Assembly (NCBI GenBank): GCA_017654855.1
Contig: CM030332.1
Location: 6,138,001-6,202,000, forward strand
Source of the DNA: Podospora anserina
Lineage: Eukaryota
Direction of reading: 5' to 3'
DNA length: 64,000 nt
Each line of letters starts with the position of its first letter. Position 1 is the first letter of the stretch. The notes beneath the pieces were generated by a model that ran no database searches, was not told the origin of the DNA, and saw only the letters and a program-made list of their open reading frames with translations. Of this stretch, positions 37,205 through 55,073 are shown in pieces. A program made the translations under genes and the position numbers.

Positions 37205-40200
37205 TGGGGGTTGAAAGGGAAGGATATACTATACCCAATCGTGTTTTGTTCTTTTGTTTATGTTTGTTTAGGTAGTTTGGGGGGGAGAACGGGGAATGTG
37301 TTTTTTGCAAGTCCTACTTATCATGGCATGTTCTGCATGGTTGGGCGAGAGAGGATAGAAGATTTTCTGGACGGGATGGATGGTTTTATTCAGGATGGTT
37401 TAAGATAGGATGATGAAGAGGGAGAGATAGGATGGAAAGCACGAGATTCTTCTTCAACATAGCGCCGTGTATAGCAGCAAAATAAGAGGTTTGTTTCTAG
37501 TGTAGTGGAGTCTTTTGATTTGGCGGGGTTTTTTTCTTGTTCTTTTTTGACATAATATGGGAGGTTTACAGATATTCTTGGGGGAAAGGATTGGTTTGCC
37601 ATTGCTTGTTTTGTTGTGTAAAGGATTATGGAATGCGTGTATGTGGGTGTGTTGTGTTCAGAGAGATTATCCGGGTATGGGAAGGGCTGGTTAAGGGCTG
37701 GTTATGATAATGAAAGATGGATACTTTGCATAGCGAATGTTATGGACAATGGAAAGTTTGAGTTTTGTCTCGAGTTGTTGGATTGGGGTGGGATAGTGTA
37801 GTCTATGTGGTTGTGCGAGTGCCTGGATGACCGAGTCTTCTTGGCTAGGCACAATGAAGACTATCTCCGGGGCAGGAAAGTTCTTGTCATAGTTACCAGC
37901 TTGATGGGAAGGCAGAAAGTACACTATAACCAAGTTATTGGACCTGATTAGGCAGAGAGGTAATTCTGATCATTGGGTTCATCTGTTGGGCTAGAAGTAA
38001 GTAGGCGGTCATGTAGGTATGCCGCAGCGTCACCTTGCTTTGGAGTATAACCTGGCCGTACTTGATCTCACCAAGTTTCTCTGTTGTCCGCGTCTTCGAG
38101 CCACATGACGGGGTTTGCGTGTTATCTCCAGAGAGAACATAATGTATAGAGTGCCTTCACCTTTAGCAGCAAAAAAGATAACAACAAGAGGCATTCCTCT
38201 TTTGAAATACTCTATTCTTATACCATAAGCTTCAAGTTCTTCTACTAGATTTGCATTTGCTCTTTACAATTCCATTTTTCTCCACTCAAAGATGGCAGCT
38301 CTATGCATTGAACTCATATCAATTGTTGGAAAGCACCTACCTTCACCCAAAGCTAGTTGCTCTTCCTGGCTTGCACCACTTACAACTACAAAGTCAACAT
38401 TTTGCTACACTTAAGTATCAGTGGAGCAACTCAGAGTTACTTTACCAGAAACGCGATTCAGAGCAAGGCTCAAGGCAAGGGGGGCTCTCGCATCGCCAGC
38501 AATAAACTCGAACCCGCCAACAAAACCCGCCCCTACCCGCCCCTTGTCCCGTCCTTCCCGCGCCCTCCTTGTGCTGGTCCTTGTTTTTCTCACATGTTGA
38601 TGTCAGAACTTGCATTCTTCAACCCTGAAGCAGACAATATTTCCCATGTACCGCATCGCTTCGATTGTCAAGCAAAAACCTTACTGTTTAGGTTACATGT
38701 CAACAGAAGGATACCTCAGCCAAAGTCTACAGACGTCGATTTTCCCTCCAGGACAGCCTCATTTTCCCCCAGTCTACATACCCTACCATTCAGTCTCCAT
38801 CTCCTGCAAGGTATGTAAGAAAGTAGGTAGCAAACCCGTAGCTACGCCCTACCCCTACCTCTCTCCCCCCCCCCTCCTTCCCGCCCCCTGCCCCTGACAT
38901 ATCGCTGACCCGCCTTCTTGCATATCCAAAGCCCACACCGCCGTTACGGCGAAGGATTCTATATGGACAGGGGTAGGTGTGCGGATTAGCATATCAAGAG
39001 CAACCACGATGATAAACATCAAGTTCAAAAGGATGATGAGCTGGTCAGCAGCTCCGTTGTATTCATGCAGGTGGGGAGGGATGTTTGGATGTGACGTGGT
39101 GGACTTTGTGAGGACTCGGGGGTTCTGCCTGCTTAAGCTAGGTGAGAACAGCCAGCTGTTGTTGAGGTTGTGTTTGTTTACCTACCTTTGTTGTGCTGGT
39201 ACGGATGTGTGAGTTGTTTCCCTGATGCTAGTGTGCTGGCCGGCCCCCAGGCTGATAGTCAAGACTCGATGGGGTATATGGTACATCGTTACAAAGCAAG
39301 CCGGGGTTTTTATCGATCGCAAGAACGTCCAGCAGGTGCATGATGCTGTTTGAAGGTTCTTAGAATTCTTAGTAGTCACTCGGTCTCGTTCAGTAATAGA
39401 TAGGTACCGTCGAGAGAGCAGACAATCTGCTTTGGAACAGTCCCTTCAAAAATGACATCACAGAAGGGGTCCAGAGTTCATCGTAGAAAAAAAAAGGGAA
39501 CCCGACCTTGCATATCGATTGTGAAACGACCCTGAATATTCTCCTTCATCGCCCCAGAATTTCCTTCTGACAAACCAGGCGGCATGAGGAACAGGTACCT
39601 TTTTGTGCATTCAACGAGTTCTGGGCACGTCGAGGATTGTTTGCCTACCTACAGCGATAGGTAAGATGGACTGCACCCTTTAGAGAGGACAGCCACACCT
39701 ACCTAGGTGGTAGAAAGTCATAATAGCAGCCTGGTATATGGGTCCAACCTCCTCTGGCTGCAAGGACAATAGAGATAAGTCATGTAGGATGGATGGAAAA
39801 AGACAAAAAGAAACAGATGAGCCCGATCCCTCTCCGCGCCGCAATTTACCATTTGATCCCATCCTATCACCTTTTGCCTTTCCCAAACCCGCAAACCGAT
39901 GAGCAAAACCTGATCTGAATATCCAAACCTACAGCCTGAGAGCACTCTGGCCATCCGATCCAGGCTCCGGAAACCTCAACCCATCGATCTCAAGATAAAA
40001 CCTCCCCCCCAAAAAATACGAGAGGTTTGTATCTTTTTTTTTCTTGCGGTGTGTGTTTGTGTGAGATGTAAGATGAAATCTGCAGCATGTATGTATGTCT
40101 GGCCATGAGAAAAGGCCGATATAAAAAAGATGCAAACTGACGTTGACAAGAGACAAACACTCACCTTCGAAAATGCCGTGGAATCTTCGGCCCCTGACAT

Positions 40201-43500: not shown

Positions 43501-46440
43501 GGTCGGTTGCTGAGTTGGCTCACCGTGAAAAGAGAGGTCCGATAGGTGTTCACCGCTCGAGAAATTGCTTCGCTGTTCATCATCAATGATGAGCTAGGCC
43601 GAGACCAGGAATGCACCGCAACGTATCCGAGAGTCCACTTCGCCGTAGGTGGATTGGTAGGTCGGTAAGGTGGGCGGCGGGTAGCGGTGGGCGGGATATG
43701 GACCGCGGAGCTTCCGGAAGCCTGCCGGCTGTCCACCGAGAAAAAAACTGCAACTCACAGCTTCACTTTTTTCCGCGTAATTTCTTCTGAGGCAGCGGCT
43801 GCGTTTCCGCGCCTAGTTTGCACGAAGTGCTCCGTAGCTGTTGAATATCGCTCGTGTTGAGCCATCTCCTGAGCACCCAGTTTTTCTGTCGACGAACGGC
43901 ACAGCGTTTCCTCCCTCCATTCTCGGCTTCGCTGCGGCGGGAGGCGTGCATTATCATAAGACCCCCCCCCTCCCCACCATCACTCTCTGTGCGTCCCGCT
44001 GCAGCACAACTGAGCCATTTCGAAAGTGCGCCCCAAGCGCCTTGCATCTCTGCAAGAGGGATGTGCATGTCGCAAACTACATCTCTGGTGATGTACAATG
44101 TGCTCGCATGCTTTTCCCTCATCCAGGTATGCCCGTATTGACCCTATCTTTGCGCTATCACCAAGAGCCGCTTGTCATGCGCATTGCTCTGCTGTTTCGA
44201 TCATGTTTCCAGTGGAAACCGAGCGTCTGATTGGTTGGGCTGGAGGATCAGATCAGATGGCAGCCAGTTGACCGCTCCCCGACCAGAAATAGGCAGGTTG
44301 ATGACTTTTCCAGTCCGCGGAGCGAAGCCGGGCAATAGTTCAGTTCCTGGCACGCCAATCCCATCCATCCAGTCACCGTTCCCTCGGCGCGGGAAATAAC
44401 CTGGGACCTCTCTGGGCTGTCTGTCTTGTCTGTCTGTCTTCTCCAGGTCGCTCTGCGTATCATCCAGTCCTGGGTGAATTGCTCTTTATTATCCCACCAA
44501 CCGTGGTGTGTTGGTTGATGTCGGCCACCGTGGTTGTTTTATATCCAGTCACTTTTATGTACTTTGTCTTGCCCGTCGAGACAAGCTCTTGTTGCCGGAC
44601 CTCCTCCCTGCCCTCCCTGCCCACGTCAACCCGTCCAACCCGTCCCCTCGGTTCTGTGCTAAAATCCCACTCGAACCCCCCCTGCGCAGAAGAAGCCGAA
44701 GCAGCCACCAAGCCCCCCCCTCGACACACCCAATTACCACATAATCTTCCCTGCCTCCCCCAATTTTTAACCTTGTGTACCTTTTCCCCCTCCCGCCAGA
44801 TCCCAGACGGCGACCAGGGCTGTCGTCGAATGCAAGGACCGCGAGACCGGGCTTGCACAAGAGACGTCTCCAAGAACCCGAAGAAGCTCACCCCCCTAGC
44901 TTTCTGCCCCTGGTGACCACCCCTCACCACCCCATCATTGCAAGGATTCTCAGGGCACCCACGGCACCCAAGCTCCCCCCCTCGTCCCTCTCCACCCGTC
45001 TGGGCAGCCCATCTGCAACCGGCCCAACGGTCGAGAGACAACCTCATCCTTGCCCCTGCAGTCCGTCTGTTTTTCACAATTCCCATCTTCAAACCTCTCG
45101 ATCACAGTTCGCAGCCTGTTTGAAGCACTACCTACCTTCGTATATTTTTTTTGAGGGTGGGTTTTTGGCTGCTTTTGATCATTATCATCATTACCATTTT
45201 GAGAGTCACATATCCGCGAACTAGCTCAGCTCAACCTCAACGTGTCATTCTTTAGCCTTACCTTGACGGCTTTCAAGAACAACACCGCTCGAGTTGCTGG
45301 GTCAAAACAGTATCTTTACCTACTAACCGCAACATATATATCATATATCTCTATCTCTGTTAGTTGTTCAACTGTCGGTTTATTCTCGTTTGCTCTTGCC
45401 TTGTGAGGGCCTCATTCTACATGCTGCCAGTGTGCCGCAAGCCATTGTCAAACGCCACTTGCTTGGACGGGCGAAGAGCTGATCGGATATAGACTCGGAG
45501 CTTTTTTTCTCCCCGATCGCGTCCTCGTGCTCACAGCTTGATTTCTTTTTTCTGGTCAGTCCATCTCTTTCATCCTCTCCCTCACCGAGGTGTGTGTCGG
45601 TGTAGCATCGCGGCCTCGCTATTCCCCCTGTCAACATCCTCCAATCTTCCCCAAATCCTATCCAAAATTCCCGACCAGGCCGCTTCACGTGTCTGCGTGC
45701 AGCAGCGTGTCTTGTCTCCCCCCCCACACACACTGACCCCTGCATGGGTGATGACCCAAGTACCACGAAAAATAAAAGCAATTCAGCGCCTTGACGGCGG
45801 CGCTCGCCCTCTTGTCGAAAAGAACCAAGGCTTGCTTCTTGCAGGTAGCAAACCTGCGCTTACCACATTTCGCAAAAGCAAACAGTTTTTCTTTCTTTCT
45901 TTCTTGCTTTCTTTCTTCACGTTGTCGTCACTCTCACCTGCCTACCTTACATACATGTGGGCGCGACTGGGAATTACCTAACACATTGCCGTACTCGACC
46001 GTTTTTCCACCGTTGCACCTTTCGCGTCCCACGCCACTGAATCCACAGGGACGGAACACCCAGAAAACGCTTGGTTGACAATACGAAGGGGAGTAGCAGA
46101 CTACCGGTGTGTACTGCGTGTTTCGTTTCGTTTCTTTTTTACACCTTTGTCATCAGCCATCGCCTTGTGTTTCCCCGAGCCCATATCTGTGCATACCTAC
46201 AAAAGACGTCGCGTGTTGAATGGCGAGTGACGGCATGTCGATTCACCCTTTCGGATCTCTTACTGCAGGGTCTTCTTCAGTCGCTTCTGTCTCCTCTCCT
46301 CGTGGTGTCGAGGTTGGCAGGCGTGGGAAGTGTGGCCGTTAATCTGAGACCTTGCACCTCGCGCTAAGCAGTTTGTGCTGATTTTTGACTGCGGTGTAAC
46401 CCAGTGGCCGACGCGCATTTCTTCCCACCATCATCCCTGT

Positions 46441-48469
46441 TCAAATAGCAAGGTCCTGTCCAACAGGCCCCCCTTTCATCCGAACTTTTTCAAAGACGCA
46501 CACCTTCAAACCATCTCGTTGCGCGCGCGTTCCTAATACCATATCCAAAGGCCTTGTCAACCTTCGAGGTAAACTTGAGATCCGGCCGCGCCACCATCTC
46601 GACAGGAGCAACAGTCTCGAATACTCGTCTTGCGTCGCGCGCATCGCACAACACCGCAAGCTGCCGTTTGCATTGCAGAGGTGAGTTCATCGCAATACTC
46701 TCGGGTTTCCCCCATCAGCCAGAAAACCCTCCAACGACTAGGACATGCCCTGGACCGACCGAGCTCTGGATCACCACGTCCAGCCTATGTGTGTGTGTGC
46801 GGTTGTCGACATTCAGGATGACGATGCTGCCGCCCAGGGCATGGGTGCGATTCGACATGGGCTTCAATACAATTGCATCGTTGCATATGGCTAACCTCTT
46901 TGTTGAAAGGCATCCCGTTTCTCTTTTCCAAGGCAAGTTGATCTTGTGGCCGGTCCCATGTCTTCCATGCGCGCATCGGCTTGATGCTGCATCCTCGATC
47001 CCGCCAAGTGGTGTCACAAACATCACCATCGCCGACCATCTATCAACTTTCACCCGAAGGTTCAGAACATTGTCGATGGTTCCTGCCATCCGATTTTGTC
47101 GCCCTTGCTGTCACTGCACGCGCTGCCATATTGCATCATAGCATATGCTCCTTGCAGCATGGGCCTGGTTTATCCCTTCCCACAGCTGCAACGCATCGAG
47201 TCTCCTTCCATTGGATTATACGTTGACATATTCGCGGACGACGAGGCTAACAAGGCGGCAGGCGTTGCAGATCCATCGGTTCGAAAGAGACGGACGTGAG
47301 CAAGCAAGAGCAACCGCGACTTACAAGCAATTACAAAGGGTACGTCTTTGTGAGCCGGTGGGTTTTTCTTTTTATAAAGTCAAGCACGTGGTTCAAGCAC
47401 CTCAACGGTCTGAACCCGAGTGACTGGATTTGGTGGCCCGTTAGACGTCGCTTCCCCCAGCCCTTTTTTTTTCTTCCCACAACGTACACACCGTCCAACC
47501 GAAAAAGCTACCAAGCGACTGGACTTCTGGGAAACGAGGTCTAACTTTGCGCTACGCGACGTTCAGAACGCGTTATCAGGGAAATTCTATTTCGGGACAT
47601 TTGAGGTAATAGCCAAGGTACGTGCATATCACTTTTCCCCATCACCTCAGGCAGCACCCGTCGCACTTGTCGGCCATGTTTGTTCAAGGCAAATCATATT
47701 GGGCGTGCTCTGGTGCACCACCCGTTCGGAAATCGTACCAGGGTCTGGTGTCACACTCAGCGCGATCCCGTTTCAATCTCGGCAATGTTCCACCCTAGTC
47801 CCCCTTCTGTCCTTGCATGAAGCGTTGGGAAATTTTGCTACATGCGAGACCCCTTGGCTTTTGCTGCTTTTTATTTCGTTTTATATTGGTATCTTCAGGC
47901 CCAAGGGGCGCGGTGCGTTCGGATCGAGACTAACTTGCTGGCCTGTTTTTCCCCATTTCTTCTAGAACGCCGCACTGCCGACCGCCTTTCACAATCTCAA
48001 GCCCATCCTTGCCAGCAGCGCGTTTGGCCCGCACCTACTAAAAACCTCGACCTTTTCCCCAGAACATCGTGTGCTTCCCCGGCCGAACAAACAAGACCGC
48101 ACGCACCGATCCCGAGACCGCACTATCGTGGTAACGGCGCCGAATTTATCTGTGAGTAGATCTCCATTGCATCCGTCTCCCGAATCTCTATCCGCGCCTT
48201 TCTCGTGCCATGGCCAGCCACGGTCGCGTCGTTCACGGCAAGCCAGGCGGGTGCACGGGTCCCTGGCCACACAACCTGGTTTACTTGTCGCCAGTTTGGC
48301 AGGCGTTCCTGGCAGACGATCAACCCAGGTCCGCTGTGTGTTCCACAACCAGCGAGGTCATCGCGACACACGCACGCACGCACGCACACACAGAGAGAGC
48401 CGACTTGGACTAACATCTCCCCCTCCCCACAGAGAAACCCTTACAGCACTTTGAAGACGAGCATACCCT
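46441..48469 (+). other. Predicted spliced 5' leader of the downstream gene: exons ending at 46680, 47567-47617, 47966-48151 and starting at 48433
   Basis: Consecutive canonical donors GTGAGT (46681), GTACGT (47618) and GTGAGT (48152). Each pairs with a CTAAC branch plus YAG acceptor (47566, 47965, 48432). The predicted exons contain no ATG until 48470. The 5' boundary is uncertain. Confidence 0.6.
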
Positions 48470-51400
48470 ATGGGACTGATGAAGATGGCTCAGCACCGGC
48501 AGGCGCCCAGCCACTTCAAGGAAGAGCCCGGTCATGACTCGGTGAGTGCCACTTTTTTCAATCTCTGTTCGCCAATCCACCCACCACCGAGAGTGCCGCA
48601 GGCGCGCTTGCCTGCTGTTAGGTAATGTCAAGCGACAATTGTCCTCAGCGCGGCATTTACTACGTGATCTCCACCGTCGAGCGTTTTCAATAGTCGCCCG
48701 AATTTACGTTTCCTTCTCAGAGTGCGATATCAATATCCAAAAAACAAAAAAAAAAAGCCAAAAAAAAGACGCCTTCGTCCGTCGATGTAGGCGCGTCGTT
48801 GATTTCCTTGGCCAATCGAGTCGGGGTCGAGTTGTTCCAGAAAACGGCTGTGCCTGTCGCAAGCCTGACTTGGAGAAGATGAGTGGTCAGGGTTGTGTGG
48901 GAATTGCAAGGGCCCTCCTGTTTCACCACCAGCCAGGGCGTCGGTAGTATGCAACAGGGGCTTGTGCCGGCGTGCGTAGTGCGCATTTGGCCTGGACGAG
49001 ATGCGCCATCAGCACCTTTTTGTGCCATACCCTCACAGTACATCGGCACCATCCTATTCCTTTTCCACCATCCGGCCTCTCCAAATTGGCACAGGTGTGG
49101 TTGCTGGCTGTTGGCCTGAGCATGCCGCGCCGGCATTGGGTTCAACGGTGCAACTCAATTCATAGCCTACGACAAGTGACAGCTGTCCATGGAGGCCAGC
49201 GTTTGGCTTGCATGATATAGTGTGTCAGCGGTCTGGGTTCCCCAGAGTGGCGGACCGAACAGGTCATGGCCACTGTTTCCCAACGGCGGTGTGGCTGGGA
49301 TGCTGGCGCCGTACCGATGGCCTTCCCCTGTACCCCAAACCTTACCCTTCCCCCATCACCCAAGGCGTCGCAAATGCCGTATCAAAAGATCAGGGCAAAA
49401 AGAAACGGATCGAGCGATCGCGGCGCTTCACCTGGAAATCTCATGTCGGACCTGGATGGTGGCCCATTCACCGGAGTCAGGTGTGCACGCTGACGACACT
49501 CGTGCGACGGTCTCGCCATGTCCATGGTACCTCTGCTGTGTACTCGGTACATGCGCTGGGTGTTCTAGAGTCGTGGTTGGAGTCAGTCGCACCGTTGGCA
49601 AGTGGGGTTTTGGAGGCAACTCACCGTGTCCTGTGGGGCATTCTCTCAAGCGTGTGTGGTGGAGCCACCCGCTGAGTGGTTCCGCGCAGAGTGGGAGGGA
49701 GACAGGGACAACACGTTCCGCAGCACCCTCCCCCGGTGTGCCTCCGGCCAGGGTCCACACATGGGCGCAAGTTTTCTCGGAAGCATGACCTCGCTGTCTC
49801 GGCTGCAGCAAAGAAAGCTGCTGCAAATGTCATCCCAAATGACGGGACTGCGAGGTATCTCGTACCTCAGTCCGGGCATGCGTTCTGTGTCCTGCGCGGG
49901 TGCTGTGTCCCATCAGCGAGTTGCTGTGATGCCCCATGCCCAGCCCCTCCGGTGCTTACAGGCGAATCCAATGCGCAGCCCTCTGGGCTTCCCAAAGAGC
50001 GGTACGTATCGGCGACCTGCTGCGGGACTTCCATGTTCCATTGGAGTGCCGTGTTCTCGAGTGGGAGAAGAGAGCCGGCCTGCCAGTGCAGGGATTGGCC
50101 CAGGAGCCCGCTGGGGACCCGCATGTGCACACCCGCACCTCACCGCCCCTTGTCCTTGCCCCAGATGATGAAAGCGCACACACAGAAGACACGCAGAAAA
50201 GACAGAACACACGCAGAGACGGGCCTGCCAGGAAAACGAGAGCAAACCACACACTGGGCTTGCCCTTTCAGTGGCTAGCTCCGGCCTGCCAGTCCCGGTT
50301 GGGCAATAGTCATGACCCTCGGCTCTGCAGGCGTTCCGCCATTGGCCATTTCATCTAAAAATGCAGTCGTCCCCCCTGCCCGCGTTTCTTTCAAGCCCTT
50401 GTCCTACCACACAACCAAAGGAGAATTCCTTTCCTTCACTCTGGTCAGGTTCAGGGCTTTGAGGCTTCTCTTCGGTCTTCTCAGCCCCCGGTCTGGTCAG
50501 CGAGACAGAGGACGTTGAATCTCAAGCATCATTATCATTCTTGTTGCCCCCTGTTCAATCTCATCATTCTTGACCTTCTCCTGGTCCGGAGCCCCATCTT
50601 CCCATTCTCCTCCTGGCCGTCCCCAGTCGGTACATAATACAGCCATCCCCACAAAATAGCGACTCCCTTCTACACCTTCATCTCTAGTCGACCATCTCCT
50701 CTGTGGCCACGCCGCAGCACTGCATATCTGGTTAGTAGCCATCACGATCCCCCCCTTTGCTCCCCTCCATGCGGTGTTATCTTGATGGAATGCCACCATG
50801 CCATTGAGAGAACACCCAGGTGGCAATCTCGAAACCTCGGGAGGTGATTCCGAGCATTTGCTGCTCCACTAGGTGGGTAGCATTGGCCTCCCTGGCTCCT
50901 CACAGTCGGTTTGGATGCCGGATGATGGGAGCCCTGTCGTACTGTACAAATCCCACCCAAATCCCCGAGGCTAACCCGCCTCGTCCGTGGATCCCTCGTC
51001 CTTTTTTTTTCAGGGGACCGACACATCTTCCCGGCTGCCCAGACCTTGCACGCGGTTCAGGTTGAGAAAAAAAAGCACAACATTCCCAGACGCGTCTGCG
51101 GCGCTCCAGAACACACACACACACATGGTCTTTTTTTGTCTAGCAAGCAACCCTGTACCGTGAAGACTAATGGTTGTCTCCTCTATGCAGCATCACACCC
51201 ACCATCAACAACAACAGGGTCCTGTTCCTCCTCATCTGCAGCATTCTCGCCCCTCTAGCATTGTTCATCAACAGCATCACAGTCAAGCCCCAGCGCAACA
51301 ACAGCAATCCCACTCGAGCGCGTATTCGTCCGGCCACTCGGTCTATCAACCGCAGTCTCAGGCAAGCAACGCTCAAGAACATTCGCTGTCGTACTACGGA

Positions 51401-54225
51401 CACCAGCCGAGCCCGTACAGCACGCCGGGTGCGACTAGCGGGTACACTTCCGCAGGTGGGTGAAAATTTCTCGTGGGTTTGGAACTTCAACCCCAAACTC
51501 AAAACCACACGCTCGACAAACTGGCTAACGTCGACTTGTAGACACCGGAGACATGATGGCTGCAACCATGCCGAGACCACCGTATCCCCCAATGTCATCC
51601 TACCACACTCCTCAGTCCAACTCGCCCGCCTCGGTAGCATCGCCATCAGGTCATGATCAGCAGAGAAGCATGTATGGACAGCCTCCTTCGCAATTACACC
51701 AGCAGTCAATGTACTATGGCGGGCCTCAGCAACAGTACTCGTCCATGTCGGCGCAGACTGCTTCTTCCCCGTACGCTCAACACCCGCAGCAATCACACCA
51801 GTCTATGGCCTCTCAACCGAGCATGATGATGTCTCACACGGCTCCTCAGCACCAGATGAGCCACCACACCTCGCAGCACTCGCAGGCTGGCATGACGGTC
51901 AGCCCTCGGCCCGGAAAGATTGAGACTCATGGTCTCACTAACCGGATACCTGGACCCTCTGCTCCCGTCTCCATCGGTAGCGCCTCATCCACTGGTCCTC
52001 AGAATGGTGCTCCTCTTACCGCGCCAGCTGGCGGAGCTGCTGGCGTGAATCCCAACGCTGCCCCCGGACCTATCCCCGCCACCACGCCCCTTGTGGTCAG
52101 GCAAGATACCAACGGAGTACAGTGGATTGCGTTCGAGTACTCTCGTGACAGAGTCAAGATGGAGTACACGATTCGCTGCGACGTGGAATCGGTGAACCAG
52201 GATGAGCTGTCGGCCGAGTTCAAGACGGAGAACTGCGTGTATCCGCGCGCTTGCTGCCCCAAGGACCAGTACCGCGGAAACCGCCTTGTGTACGAGACCG
52301 AGTGCAACTCTGTGGGCTGGGCTTTGGCCCAACTCAACCCGCCTCTCCGCGGCAAGAGAGGTCTGATTCAGCGGGCTGTTGACAGCTGGCGCAACAGCAA
52401 CCAGGACCCGAGACTCAGAAGTCGTCGCGTCCGACGAATGGCCAAGATGAACACGCGCAACAGCAAGGCTGGTTCAACGACACCGCATGCCACCCACATT
52501 GGTACCCCAACCGGCCCAGGGATGCCCACCCCAACGGGCATGGGAGCGAGCGGCAACCCGGCGATTGGCAAGCCCGGCATGGGCGGCATGAACTCGTCGA
52601 TTCACCACCACCACGGCCAGCAGGATGGGAGTGCCCAGGGGGGAGATGAAGTCGGTATGTTTCACCAGATGGCCTGAAGCGCGCGCGTTTGTTCGTGATT
52701 AAGTGTGATACCTCTTCAAACCGCTCTGCCTTGCTCGTGTTTCTTTTTTGTTCTGTCGGTTACTGTTGCGTTATTGGGTTTTTCCGTCTTTTTTACAGGG
52801 AGTTTCTAGTCGTTTTGTTTTTCCTTTTTTACCTGTTATATACCGGCTCGGCGACATTACAAAATCTCGAGCACACCGCATCTGGGGCAACCACAGGAAC
52901 CTGGTACAAAAGAAAGATCTGTACATTACACTAGTTGCGCGTTTGCTGTTGTTGTTGTTGTTAGTTTTGTTTTTGCTGGTTTTCGGTCGTCGTCGTTTTC
53001 GTCGTCTGGCTGCTGGCACTGCACCATCACAGCATTCGCTTTGTTCACACATATCAACCAGCACCTTTTTTCATCACACACACTATACACACACACACAA
53101 CACATACATGTCAATTGCCTCACACTCTGAGCAAAACGGAGTGCCCTATCTGACGGGGCTTTGAAAACCTGTTCTGTACAAGAACGAAAAAGCACCCCCC
53201 TTGTTTGTATCCCTGCTTCTCGTTTGGAGGGTTCGCGAGTTCTTGCTGCTGTTTTCGTGGTTTGGGAAGCATCACACTTACCATGATCTGACGCGTGTCG
53301 TTTTTGATACGTGGCAGCACGTATTCTCTCCTCCCTCTCTTCTCTCTGCCTTCTCCGCGGGGGGGGGGGTTGGGGGGGTTGATTGAGGGGGAGGGGGAGA
53401 GCAAGTTGTTATGTCATTGGTTGAGAACATGTTTCACTAACGGATTTATTTTCTCATGTCTTATAGGCGACGGAGATTCCTACATGGACGAGCAACAGCA
53501 TCACCACCACCATCAACCCCCTACCCAGGCTGGATCTGCCTCGGGGTCCGAAGACCGTCCTTCTCAGGTTTTCACCGGCTACGGCTCCTACAATGGCGCG
53601 CCCACCCACGCTGGCTCGTCCAACTCGATGTCGATTCACGACCAGCTGAGCGGCTCGCCTCATGCCAGCGGCGGCGGCGGCGCGATTGCGACTCGCAGGA
53701 TGAGCGCCGGGCGTGATCCCCGGGATGACGAGCCCGAGGATTTGTTCCCCGATATCCCCGAGGCCAAGAAGCGCAAGTTTATTCTGGTCGAGGACTCCGA
53801 CAGGCAGAGCCGCCTCCGGGTGCGCGTCACGCTGGACGGCGTGGACACGCGCGAGATTCCCGATAGCTTCCGCAAGAGCAGCAGTGTTTATCCCAGGTCG
53901 TACTTCCCCCGGGAGATGCAGAGCCCGCCCCCGAGCGCGACGGGAAGCAAGTTTTTCTTGGACGACGCGAGTGATCATGACGGCAACGAGGACGATGGGA
54001 CGACCGATACCGAGGGTCGCCGTGCTGGTCGCGGCGCCAGAAGCAGAGGTCGGACCATGGTCAAGGTTCCCATGGGCGAGGGCCAGGAAGGAGAGGTGGC
54101 CATTCCGAGGATGAGGAAGGGGTTTAGGGGGAAGGAGGTGAGGCTGAATGATTTGGGGTATCGGATGGCTTGGTTGCAGAGTAGGGTTTTTGCAGGGAGG
54201 ACGGTGTTTTTGCAGCGAGCTTGTA

Positions 54226-54265
<40 letters not shown>

Positions 54266-54440
54266 GCGAAGATTATGTACTGACATGTCGGTAGTGGATT
54301 GCTACAGAAACAAGACCCGAAGCGCCATGGAGTCGGTCATGCAAGACGTCAAGACGGCGGCGCCGCACTACGAGACGCGAGTCGGCAAGAGAAAGTGGAA
54401 CGATCGGATGCGCGGGGGGGAGAAGAAGGAGGACGATTAG
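48470..54440 (+). CDS. Uncharacterised fungal protein with a Q/H/S/P-rich N-terminus and two diverged copies of one domain; predicted exons 48470-48541, 51191-51455, 51542-52654, 53467-54222 and 54295-54440
   Basis: All splice junctions are canonical and phase-compatible (about 783 aa). Domain 1 is VQWIAFEYSRDRVKMEYTIRCD..VYPRA..RGLIQRAVDSWRN; domain 2 is RVRVTLDGVD..VYPRS..VFLQRALDCYRN. The first exon is inferred, and ATG 51170 is an alternative start. Confidence 0.8.
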
Positions 54441-55073
54441 TTTCTGTCTTCCACCTTGCGCGACGTCTCTTTTTCTTGCGGAACCACTTTCATGGACAAC
54501 GACGACGACGTTTATGAGCATGAGCAATGAGCATGTGAGCTGGCCGTCTTTCTCCTGGCAGCACAATCCAAAAGTTCACGACTCTCTTGCAGAAGAGGAA
54601 AAAAAGCATCGGCATCAATCATCATTCGTCTTGTTGAGCGGGATATTGTCAAAGTTTGTTTCGCTTGTTTTTTTTTTTTTTTCAGTTTCGGCATTGGCAT
54701 TGGGGGCATTTCATGTGGTGTGGAGGAAGGGGAAGGGGAAGGGGGGTGGAAAATGGGGGGATGGTTTGGTGGCATTTGTGTTTTACAAGTTTTTGTCGTT
54801 TGGGTGTGTTTTTTGTTTTGGGGGGGAGGATGGAGTTGTTGTTGTTGTTGTTGGTATACGAAGAGACAAAAACATGGCGTATAGTTGTACCTAGATAGAT
54901 GTATGTAGTGAAGGGGGGGAAAGGGGACGTGGTTGTGTAAGAAAAGTACTTGGGGTGTGTCAGAGTGTTTGTGGGTAGACAAAAAAAATACATAAAAGTT
55001 AAATTGCAGGTCTGTTGGTTGTTGTTATTCTGTGTCGTGTGGTGGTTCGGGATTTGGGTGGTGATGTGAAAAG

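Follow-up and report, generated by a model that had tools for sequence, protein, structure and literature searches.

A supposed gene desert in the genome of Podospora anserina is very probably the spliced 5' half of a single protein-coding gene. The window analysed comprises 64,000 nt of contig CM030332.1 (assembly GCA_017654855.1, positions 6,138,001 to 6,202,000, forward strand); all positions are counted from its first nucleotide, and features lie on the plus strand unless stated otherwise. The gene that spans the front-end stretch is Pa_1_16970, the orthologue of Neurospora crassa NCU02644. The Neurospora protein was reported to bind double-stranded TTAGGG repeats directly in vitro (PMC4650311), a property documented for that protein and in vitro only, to which the Podospora protein would be linked by orthology. 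A first-pass annotation, made from the sequence alone, had proposed that the region from 46441 to 51190 holds a multi-intron 5' leader, a hidden first coding exon and a 2.65-kb intron. Two models built from the window were compared with public records. The short model (ATG 51170 to stop 52677, one intron removed) is identical to CDP24071.1 of P. anserina S mat+ in 473 of 473 residues. The full spliced model from ATG 48470 comprises 783 aa and, from residue 4, matches the 780-aa P. comata protein VBB73241.1 in all but 2 of 780 residues. Since both models match public Podospora records, the gene was identified as Pa_1_16970.

Spliced RNA across the 5' leader

Contigs from four coded public runs (X10, X14, X16 and X2; one study each) were aligned to positions 44500-54700. 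Together they span 45493 to 54694, in agreement with the proposed transcription unit of more than 8 kb. The four sets of splice signals on which the leader had been drawn are all present in the sequence: donors GTGAGT (46681), GTACGT (47618), GTGAGT (48152) and GTGAGT (48542), acceptors CAG (47566), TAG (47965), CAG (48432) and CAG (51190), and a CTAAC or CTAAT 15-36 nt 5' of each acceptor. Three of the four introns (47618-47965, 48152-48432 and 48542-51190) were borne out to the base, the joints 47617^47966, 48151^48433 and 48541^51191 each being present in X10, X14 and X2. The remaining one, 46681-47566, turned out to be three introns. The joint 46680^47567 occurred in none of the four runs; in its place, all four carry 46680^46910, 46932^47262 and 47339^47567. 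Altogether six leader joints were found in RNA, four of them in three to four runs from different studies. A single X14 contig of 1,988 nt links 47966-48151, 48433-48541, 51191-51455 and 51542-52655. Hence, the leader and the coding region occur on one molecule.

The upstream-most leader exon (45493-46106) was seen in X2 only, where contig 17 connects 45493-46105 with 46404-46678. It reaches at least to 45493, so that in at least one run the exons extend further upstream than the leader start at 46441 that had been assumed. It is followed by a 298-nt intron (46107-46404, GTGTGT..CAG; joint 46105>46404, cut shifted by +1, X2 only) and by an ATG-free exon at 46405-46680, whose donor at 46681 is used in all four runs. 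The next intron (46681-46909, 229 nt, GTGAGT..AAG) contains seven ATG and is defined by the joint 46678>46908 (cut +2) in X10, X14, X16 and X2. A 23-nt micro-exon (46910-46932), with its flanking joints in all four runs, precedes a GC-AG intron of 329 nt (46933-47261, GCAAGT..CAG, four of four runs) with CTAAC 15 nt before the acceptor; the corresponding joint, 46930>47260, has four ambiguous letters, and a shift of +2 gives GC..AG. An ATG-free exon of 78 nt (47262-47339), delimited by contigs and sequence signals, is separated by a 227-nt intron (47340-47566, GTACGT..CAG; joint 47338>47566, cut +1, all four runs) from an exon of 51 nt (47567-47617); the acceptor of this intron is the one first annotated. 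The 51-nt exon has an alternative donor after 47605. Joints at 47615>47964 (X10, X14, X2) represent the 348-nt intron 47618-47965, and those at 47603>48061 (X10, X16, X2) the alternative form 47606-48062, i.e. the pair 47605^48063. The ATG-free exon 47966-48151 (186 nt) is covered by contig 6 of X14, and a 281-nt intron (48152-48432; joint 48151>48433, X10, X14, X2) completes the leader. A repeat search of the stretch returned low-complexity runs only. On the minus strand, contig 1 of X10 covers 45809-46304 and has a CT..AC joint that removes an intron at 46134-46196. It represents a spliced antisense transcript overlapping the first leader exon and intron, seen in this one contig of one run.

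Published transcript models agree with a long leader. The supplement of Lelandais et al. (2022; PMC9801653) lists eight transcripts of Pa_1_16970 with 5' untranslated regions (5'UTRs) of 485-3,780 nt, three alternative 5' splice sites and a coding span of 5,973 nt. This span fits 48470-54440 (5,971 nt) and not 51170-54440 (3,271 nt). Using an approximate coordinate offset, good to about 10 nt (an ATG lies at 38594 against a predicted 38588, and indels are present), published transcript starts fall near 46366 and 46556. Some transcripts probably start within or just 5' of exon 46405-46680.

The claim that the leader exons lack ATG and that the introns contain many holds from 46405 onwards; the exon further upstream does contain ATG (see below). 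The spliced leader 46405-48469 comprises 651 nt and has no ATG, the sole trinucleotide of the 64 that is missing. Shuffled leaders (n = 5,000) contained 7.2 ATG on average, and only 0.02% of them had none. Within this leader, the five introns (1,414 nt in all) contain 18 ATG; a further 41 lie in the large intron.

If the leader were a non-coding transcript of its own, with a regulatory role in interfering with the real promoter and joined to the coding exons only by occasional read-through, one might expect several features of the locus: the gene has several transcript starts, a spliced antisense contig is present, and the leader exons show hardly any sequence conservation (when 44001-51300 was compared with relatives by blastn, a single overlap was obtained, a match of locus L006 to 46342-46443 at the start of exon 46405-46680). 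We consider this very unlikely, given that the X14 contig bridges leader and coding exons in one piece and that the protein sequence of the 24-codon exon described below is shared between classes and its donor is in phase. Moreover, freedom from ATG is needed by a translated mRNA and not by an interfering RNA.

First coding exon and large intron

The first coding exon (48433-48541), identified by contigs, sequence and a conserved peptide, encodes MGLMKMAQHRQAPSHFKEEPGHDS from ATG 48470. Its 24 codons end in phase 0. Because the frame is closed upstream by an in-frame stop at 48452, ATG 48470 is the first possible start on leader mRNAs from 46405. Further in-frame ATGs lie at 48479 and 48485, and the P. 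comata model starts at the second ATG (MKMAQ...). A start at 48470 is favoured because Neurospora and Pyricularia records retain MGL.... The in-frame junction at 51191 was correctly foreseen: the large intron (48542-51190, 2,649 nt, GTGAGT..CAG, CTAAT 24 nt before the acceptor; joint 48540>51190, cut +1, X10, X14, X2) leads to the second coding exon (51191-51455, HHTHHQQQQ...), which is supported by contigs and protein comparison. The large intron is longer than any in the 2008 annotation, where introns average 79.3 nt and reach 2,503 nt at most (Espagne et al. 2008, PMC2441463), and the leader introns are three to four times the genome mean of 79 nt.

Small insertions in the contigs relative to the window (AA, CCCCC and A, at 48738-48770, 49349 and 50416) all lie in the large intron, and the runs therefore come from a slightly different strain. 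Contigs break at an A-rich run near 48756. Stretches left uncovered in single runs (50638-50978 in X16, 50297-50978 in X14) were not counted as evidence.

Gene predictions usually place the start at ATG 51170, which overlaps the CTAAT branch, and ATG 51185 stands directly before the CAG acceptor. The first-pass annotation had read this apparent start, GACTAATGGTTGTCTCCTCTATGCAG, as branch, pyrimidine tract and acceptor, and comparison with other fungi upheld it: these sites recur at every located genomic acceptor, and the ATG there is not always present. From the 240 relatives found in a metagenome scan, 80 loci were retained. Every genomic locus in which the site was located has a CTRAY branch, a stretch rich in pyrimidines and YAG within the 30 nt that precede CAYCAY (the acceptor of L016 was not located by the script). 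The acceptor-side ATG is absent in five sequence types (L026, L037, L042/L044, L050 and L052/L054/L055/L063).

The upstream exon also occurs in other fungi. Sixteen genomic loci combine an acceptor with 5 kb or more of upstream sequence, and 12 of them have the exon with an in-phase GTRAGT donor, as has L043, with 2.5 kb upstream only. The other four of the 16 are L050 and L044, whose matches are weak (L050, E = 0.008; L044/L042, E = 0.56), and L052 and L055; a hidden Markov model (HMM) search gave no upstream-exon match in L052/L054/L055/L063, which are one sequence type, or in L080. Nine exon loci served as HMM seeds, having been found first by a regular expression derived from annotated proteins; L026 was found independently (E = 1.2e-8). 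In L064 the peptide is present in what looks like a rearranged locus, which was left out of the counts. The homologous introns that could be measured have lengths of 2,486, 2,511, 2,624, 2,575, 2,569, 2,347, 2,442, 1,869, 1,828, 1,963, 1,653 and 921 nt, a range of 921-2,624 nt that includes the weaker matches, against 2,649 nt in the window. By their nearest annotated proteins, the exon loci lie close to Sordariales (Echria, Corynascus, Thermothielavioides), Diaporthales (Cytospora), Xylariales (Xylaria), Helotiales (Cadophora, Tricladium) and the lichen-like Thelocarpon. Thus, a short exon, an in-phase GTRAGT donor, an intron of 0.9-2.6 kb and a branch with YAG recur in Sordariomycetes, Helotiales-like and lichen-like fungi.

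Eleven loci were judged intron-less, i.e. resembling complementary DNA (cDNA), from the match span relative to the residues matched. In four of these (L014, L029, L033, L060) the peptide is joined directly to HHPHH, and the leader of L029 has 343 nt and no ATG. Six others (L012, L018, L027, L028, L049, L059) have another 5' exon joined at the same point, and L001 begins exactly at the junction with the second coding exon. Alternative first exons thus seem common in this gene family. Four of the six alternative 5' exons end in ...GAG, and L027 and L059 share exon sequence. In L001, the first small coding-region intron is absent and the long one is retained, which fits a short-isoform transcript of a Chaetomiaceae-like relative.

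Annotated proteins also carry the upstream peptide. It was found in N. tetrasperma (EGZ77853.1, MGLSMAHRQAPGQYKEEPGHDS|HH), Pyricularia, Xylariaceae, F. oxysporum and four Dothideomycetes, and reads MKMAQHRQAPSHFKEEPGHDS|HH in P. comata. When residues 1-40 of P0121 were compared with the protein collection, four candidates and one match were returned, variant N-termini being masked inside 90% clusters; inside such clusters, the peptide also occurs in several Pyricularia records and one F. oxysporum record. The tBLASTn-type check that had been suggested was thus positive both in annotated orthologues and 5' of orthologues in metagenome contigs. Among 120 representative orthologues, 42 begin MQHH and 57 begin with M, two to six residues and (M/I/L)QHH; six have an upstream peptide like that of the window and 15 begin otherwise. 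As had been predicted, automated annotation truncates the gene, since 99 of the 120 begin at the acceptor-side ATG or ATGs. The Cadophora malorum model illustrates the point: locus L031 is 99% identical to its protein and has the exon 2.4 kb upstream.

Several points weigh against reading the whole stretch as the 5' half of one gene. All 18 candidate runs were labelled 'RNA? (a guess)' and none is recorded as RNA; that the runs used hold spliced RNA follows from the GT-AG joints in their contigs. Contigs give no transcript starts, ends or levels, and depths were not used for isoform ranking. The exon 45493-46106 holds three ATG (45744, 45751 and 45955), hence the longest transcripts are not AUG-free. 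Apart from the L006 match, the leader exons are not conserved in sequence by blastn. The HMM E-values are partly circular, nine loci having themselves served as seeds. Most Sordariomycete and Helotiales loci retain TATGCAG before the acceptor, which could mean that this ATG is also used as a start. Contig 13 of X16 runs unspliced from 51056 through the acceptor and is then spliced at the next intron, and an X2 contig covers 50701-51219 unspliced across the acceptor, so some mature RNA retains ATG 51170.

These observations raise the possibility of two overlapping units. The main mRNA would come from a proximal promoter near 51056 and be translated from ATG 51170 or 51185 (MVVSSMQHH..., in place of MGLMKMAQHRQAPSHFK... 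from the upstream exon), and the distal leader would belong to a condition-specific isoform with another N-terminus. Contig 13 and the lack of the 48541^51191 joint in X16 point this way, although in a single contig a transcript start is indistinguishable from intron retention. Invariant blocks lie just 5' of 51056 and ATG 51185 is widely retained, but the proximal ATG is missing in five other lineages that keep the acceptor, and another conserved ATG, at 51116, would begin a short frame that ends at 51161-51163, ahead of 51170. The 99 proximal-start annotations are predictions and not evidence, and none of the 11 cDNA-like metagenome contigs passes unspliced through the acceptor. Taken together, we regard two such units as somewhat unlikely.

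We favour a single gene with a distal leader. Its transcripts begin at least 2-3 kb (genomic distance) 5' of the first AUG, and five or six introns, one of them GC-AG, are spliced out of the leader. The AUG-free leader would let scanning ribosomes reach AUG 48470, which opens the 24-codon exon that the 2,649-nt intron joins in phase 0 to 51191. Alternative forms exist. An alternative donor, GTTAGT at 50731-50736, is spliced to acceptor 51190 in X10 and X2 (joint 50729>51190, cut +1, i.e. 50730^51191), and contig 18 of X2 is continuous from 48512 to 50730. When donor 48542 is not used, the frame ends after 51 codons, and hence forms with donor 50730 or with unused donor 48542 would lack a productive long frame; the exon before donor 50731, its frame read from the sequence, has no in-frame ATG after the stop at 50635-50637. 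Such forms may yield shorter proteins or be unproductive. Because the alternative forms would be short or unproductive, output may be set by promoter choice and splice choice.

Invariant blocks within the introns

In the blastn comparison, the stretches that aligned were the coding exon with its donor, 47726-47820 in a leader intron, and 48823-48984, 50131-50160, 50233-50409 and the last 380 nt in the large intron. The leader-intron match contains a core of 42 nt (47762-47803) found at 76-94% identity, with 40 of 42 columns identical in six of six aligned loci. The conserved end of the large intron (50807-51190), delimited by blastn and a nine-row alignment, shows 67-79% blastn identity to eight loci (L002-L005, L006, L008, L011 and L019) and shorter matches to L015. 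Here, invariant blocks of 10-25 nt are separated by variable spacers, and the region includes the CTAAT branch (51167-51171), the pyrimidine tract and the CAG acceptor together with the overlapping ATGs 51170 and 51185. This block pattern would fit protein-binding sites better than coding or structured RNA. The intron may be kept long by regulatory DNA, namely the blocks in the last 380 nt and those at 50.1-50.4 kb, which would probably act as internal promoters or enhancers.

An invariant intronic core and leader introns three to four times the genome mean (PMC2441463) are also what a host gene for small nucleolar RNAs might display, with small RNAs accounting both for intron sizes of 230-350 nt and for the 42-nt core. 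This appears extremely unlikely. Rfam searches with matches accepted up to E = 1 yielded nothing beyond a viral pseudoknot that is a chance match (26.8 bits; gathering threshold, 50), and a box C/D scan, which did not cover H/ACA RNAs, found nothing on the plus strand and a single weak candidate on the minus strand. RNAalifold gave no structure support for the core, its consensus fold being weak and without covariation support.

The core, whose minus strand contains a single TAGGGT unit, may be where the protein acts to control its own gene; TAGGGT is not enriched (16 found, 18.3 expected). A broader reading is that the long intron of 2-2.6 kb behind an exon of 20-24 codons is an ancient, length-conserved trait of Sordariomycetes, Helotiales and lichen-like fungi that houses one or more internal promoters and invariant control elements. 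The gene would then be a multi-promoter unit giving N-terminally different forms of a telomere-repeat-binding protein. We put this forward as speculation and rate it as unlikely.

Gene product, isoforms and related architectures

Downstream of 51455 the gene is organised more conventionally. An ordinary intron of 86 nt (51456-51541, joint in all four runs) precedes the third coding exon (51542-52654), which is supported by contigs and domain matches and encodes the first DUF8032 domain. For the 812-nt intron that follows (52655-53466), the joint occurs in X14 and X16, and contigs of X10, X2 and X14 continue through the donor. The last two coding exons (53467-54222 and 54295-54440) are separated by a 72-nt intron, and the stop lies at 54438-54440. 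Reading through the donor at 52655 gives ...GGDEVGMFHQMA and then a stop (52675-52677); the product corresponds to the annotated form of 473 aa. Neurospora records share a 470-aa read-through form ending in MFHQMA with the Podospora gene, and this tail is annotated in Neurospora, Triangularia and Podospora records (forms of 470-474 aa). A conserved short isoform without the C-terminal half, produced by read-through at 52655, is therefore likely.

The product of Pa_1_16970 is rich in His and Gln and contains the DUF8032 domain. The top matches of the downstream open frame are Podospora proteins, PF26087 (DUF8032) is precomputed for all 120 listed protein matches to this frame, and the Atlas feature and structure neighbours of the protein are all DUF8032. 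The 90% cluster that contains NCU02644 shows 79% identity to the third coding exon over 97% of the query and is collinear over the full length. Other identities were considered and dropped. PMC12506109 labels NCU02644 a predicted eL24 ribosomal protein gene, a label found in some databases that is unsupported by the sequence. Orthology to the developmental regulators MedA, Acr1, Ren1 or ACON-3 was rejected as well: the Neurospora member of the cluster is NCU02644, with accessions other than that of N. crassa ACON-3 (GenBank ADL28820.1, PMC3503810), and none of the members listed for the Fusarium and Pyricularia clusters (15 in each case) is named Ren1 or Acr1. The suggestion that this architecture marks a developmental gene found no support either, the only property tested in the family being the TTAGGG-repeat binding reported for the Neurospora orthologue (PMC4650311).

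Parts of this structure are on record. The curated Pa_1_16970 / VBB73241.1 model has the same upstream coding exon, 2.65-kb intron and downstream exons as the window, and the supplement of PMC9801653 gives 5'UTRs up to 3,780 nt. To call the exon hidden was thus an overstatement. GenBank records of P. anserina comprise a 467-aa partial protein that starts exactly at 51191 and the 473-aa form beginning MVVSS.... Introns in 5'UTRs are not rare in this fungus, RNA-seq having detected them in 923 P. anserina genes (PMC9801653); compared with these, Pa_1_16970 has five or six leader introns (227-348 nt) and an intron of 2,649 nt behind a 24-codon exon. A literature search by gene identifiers and DUF8032 found no text describing the architecture of this gene. 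Three features seem not to have been described before: the long intron and the short first exon are conserved across classes, public gene models are widely truncated, and the introns contain invariant blocks.

These findings matter for work on the family: few proteins that bind TTAGGG lack a known DNA-binding domain, and the product of this gene is among them. Most public models lack the true first exon, as judged from the representatives checked, and N-terminal tags, knock-outs or promoter fusions designed from truncated models would miss the real start and promoter. In addition, an intron of 1-2.6 kb that is kept across classes and has invariant blocks inside offers a tractable case for the roles of long introns in compact genomes.

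The architecture is unusual for a filamentous ascomycete, yet of a known kind. In Aspergillus nidulans, brlA consists of alpha and beta units, the shorter of which starts inside an intron of the longer, and the two proteins are distinguished by roughly 23 additional residues at the N-terminus; an upstream open reading frame is present in the brlA beta leader. The short N-terminal extension resembles the contribution of the 24-codon exon of Pa_1_16970, where a proximal start is only possible. The two genes differ in that the Podospora leader from 46405 is free of ATG and in that their proteins are unrelated.

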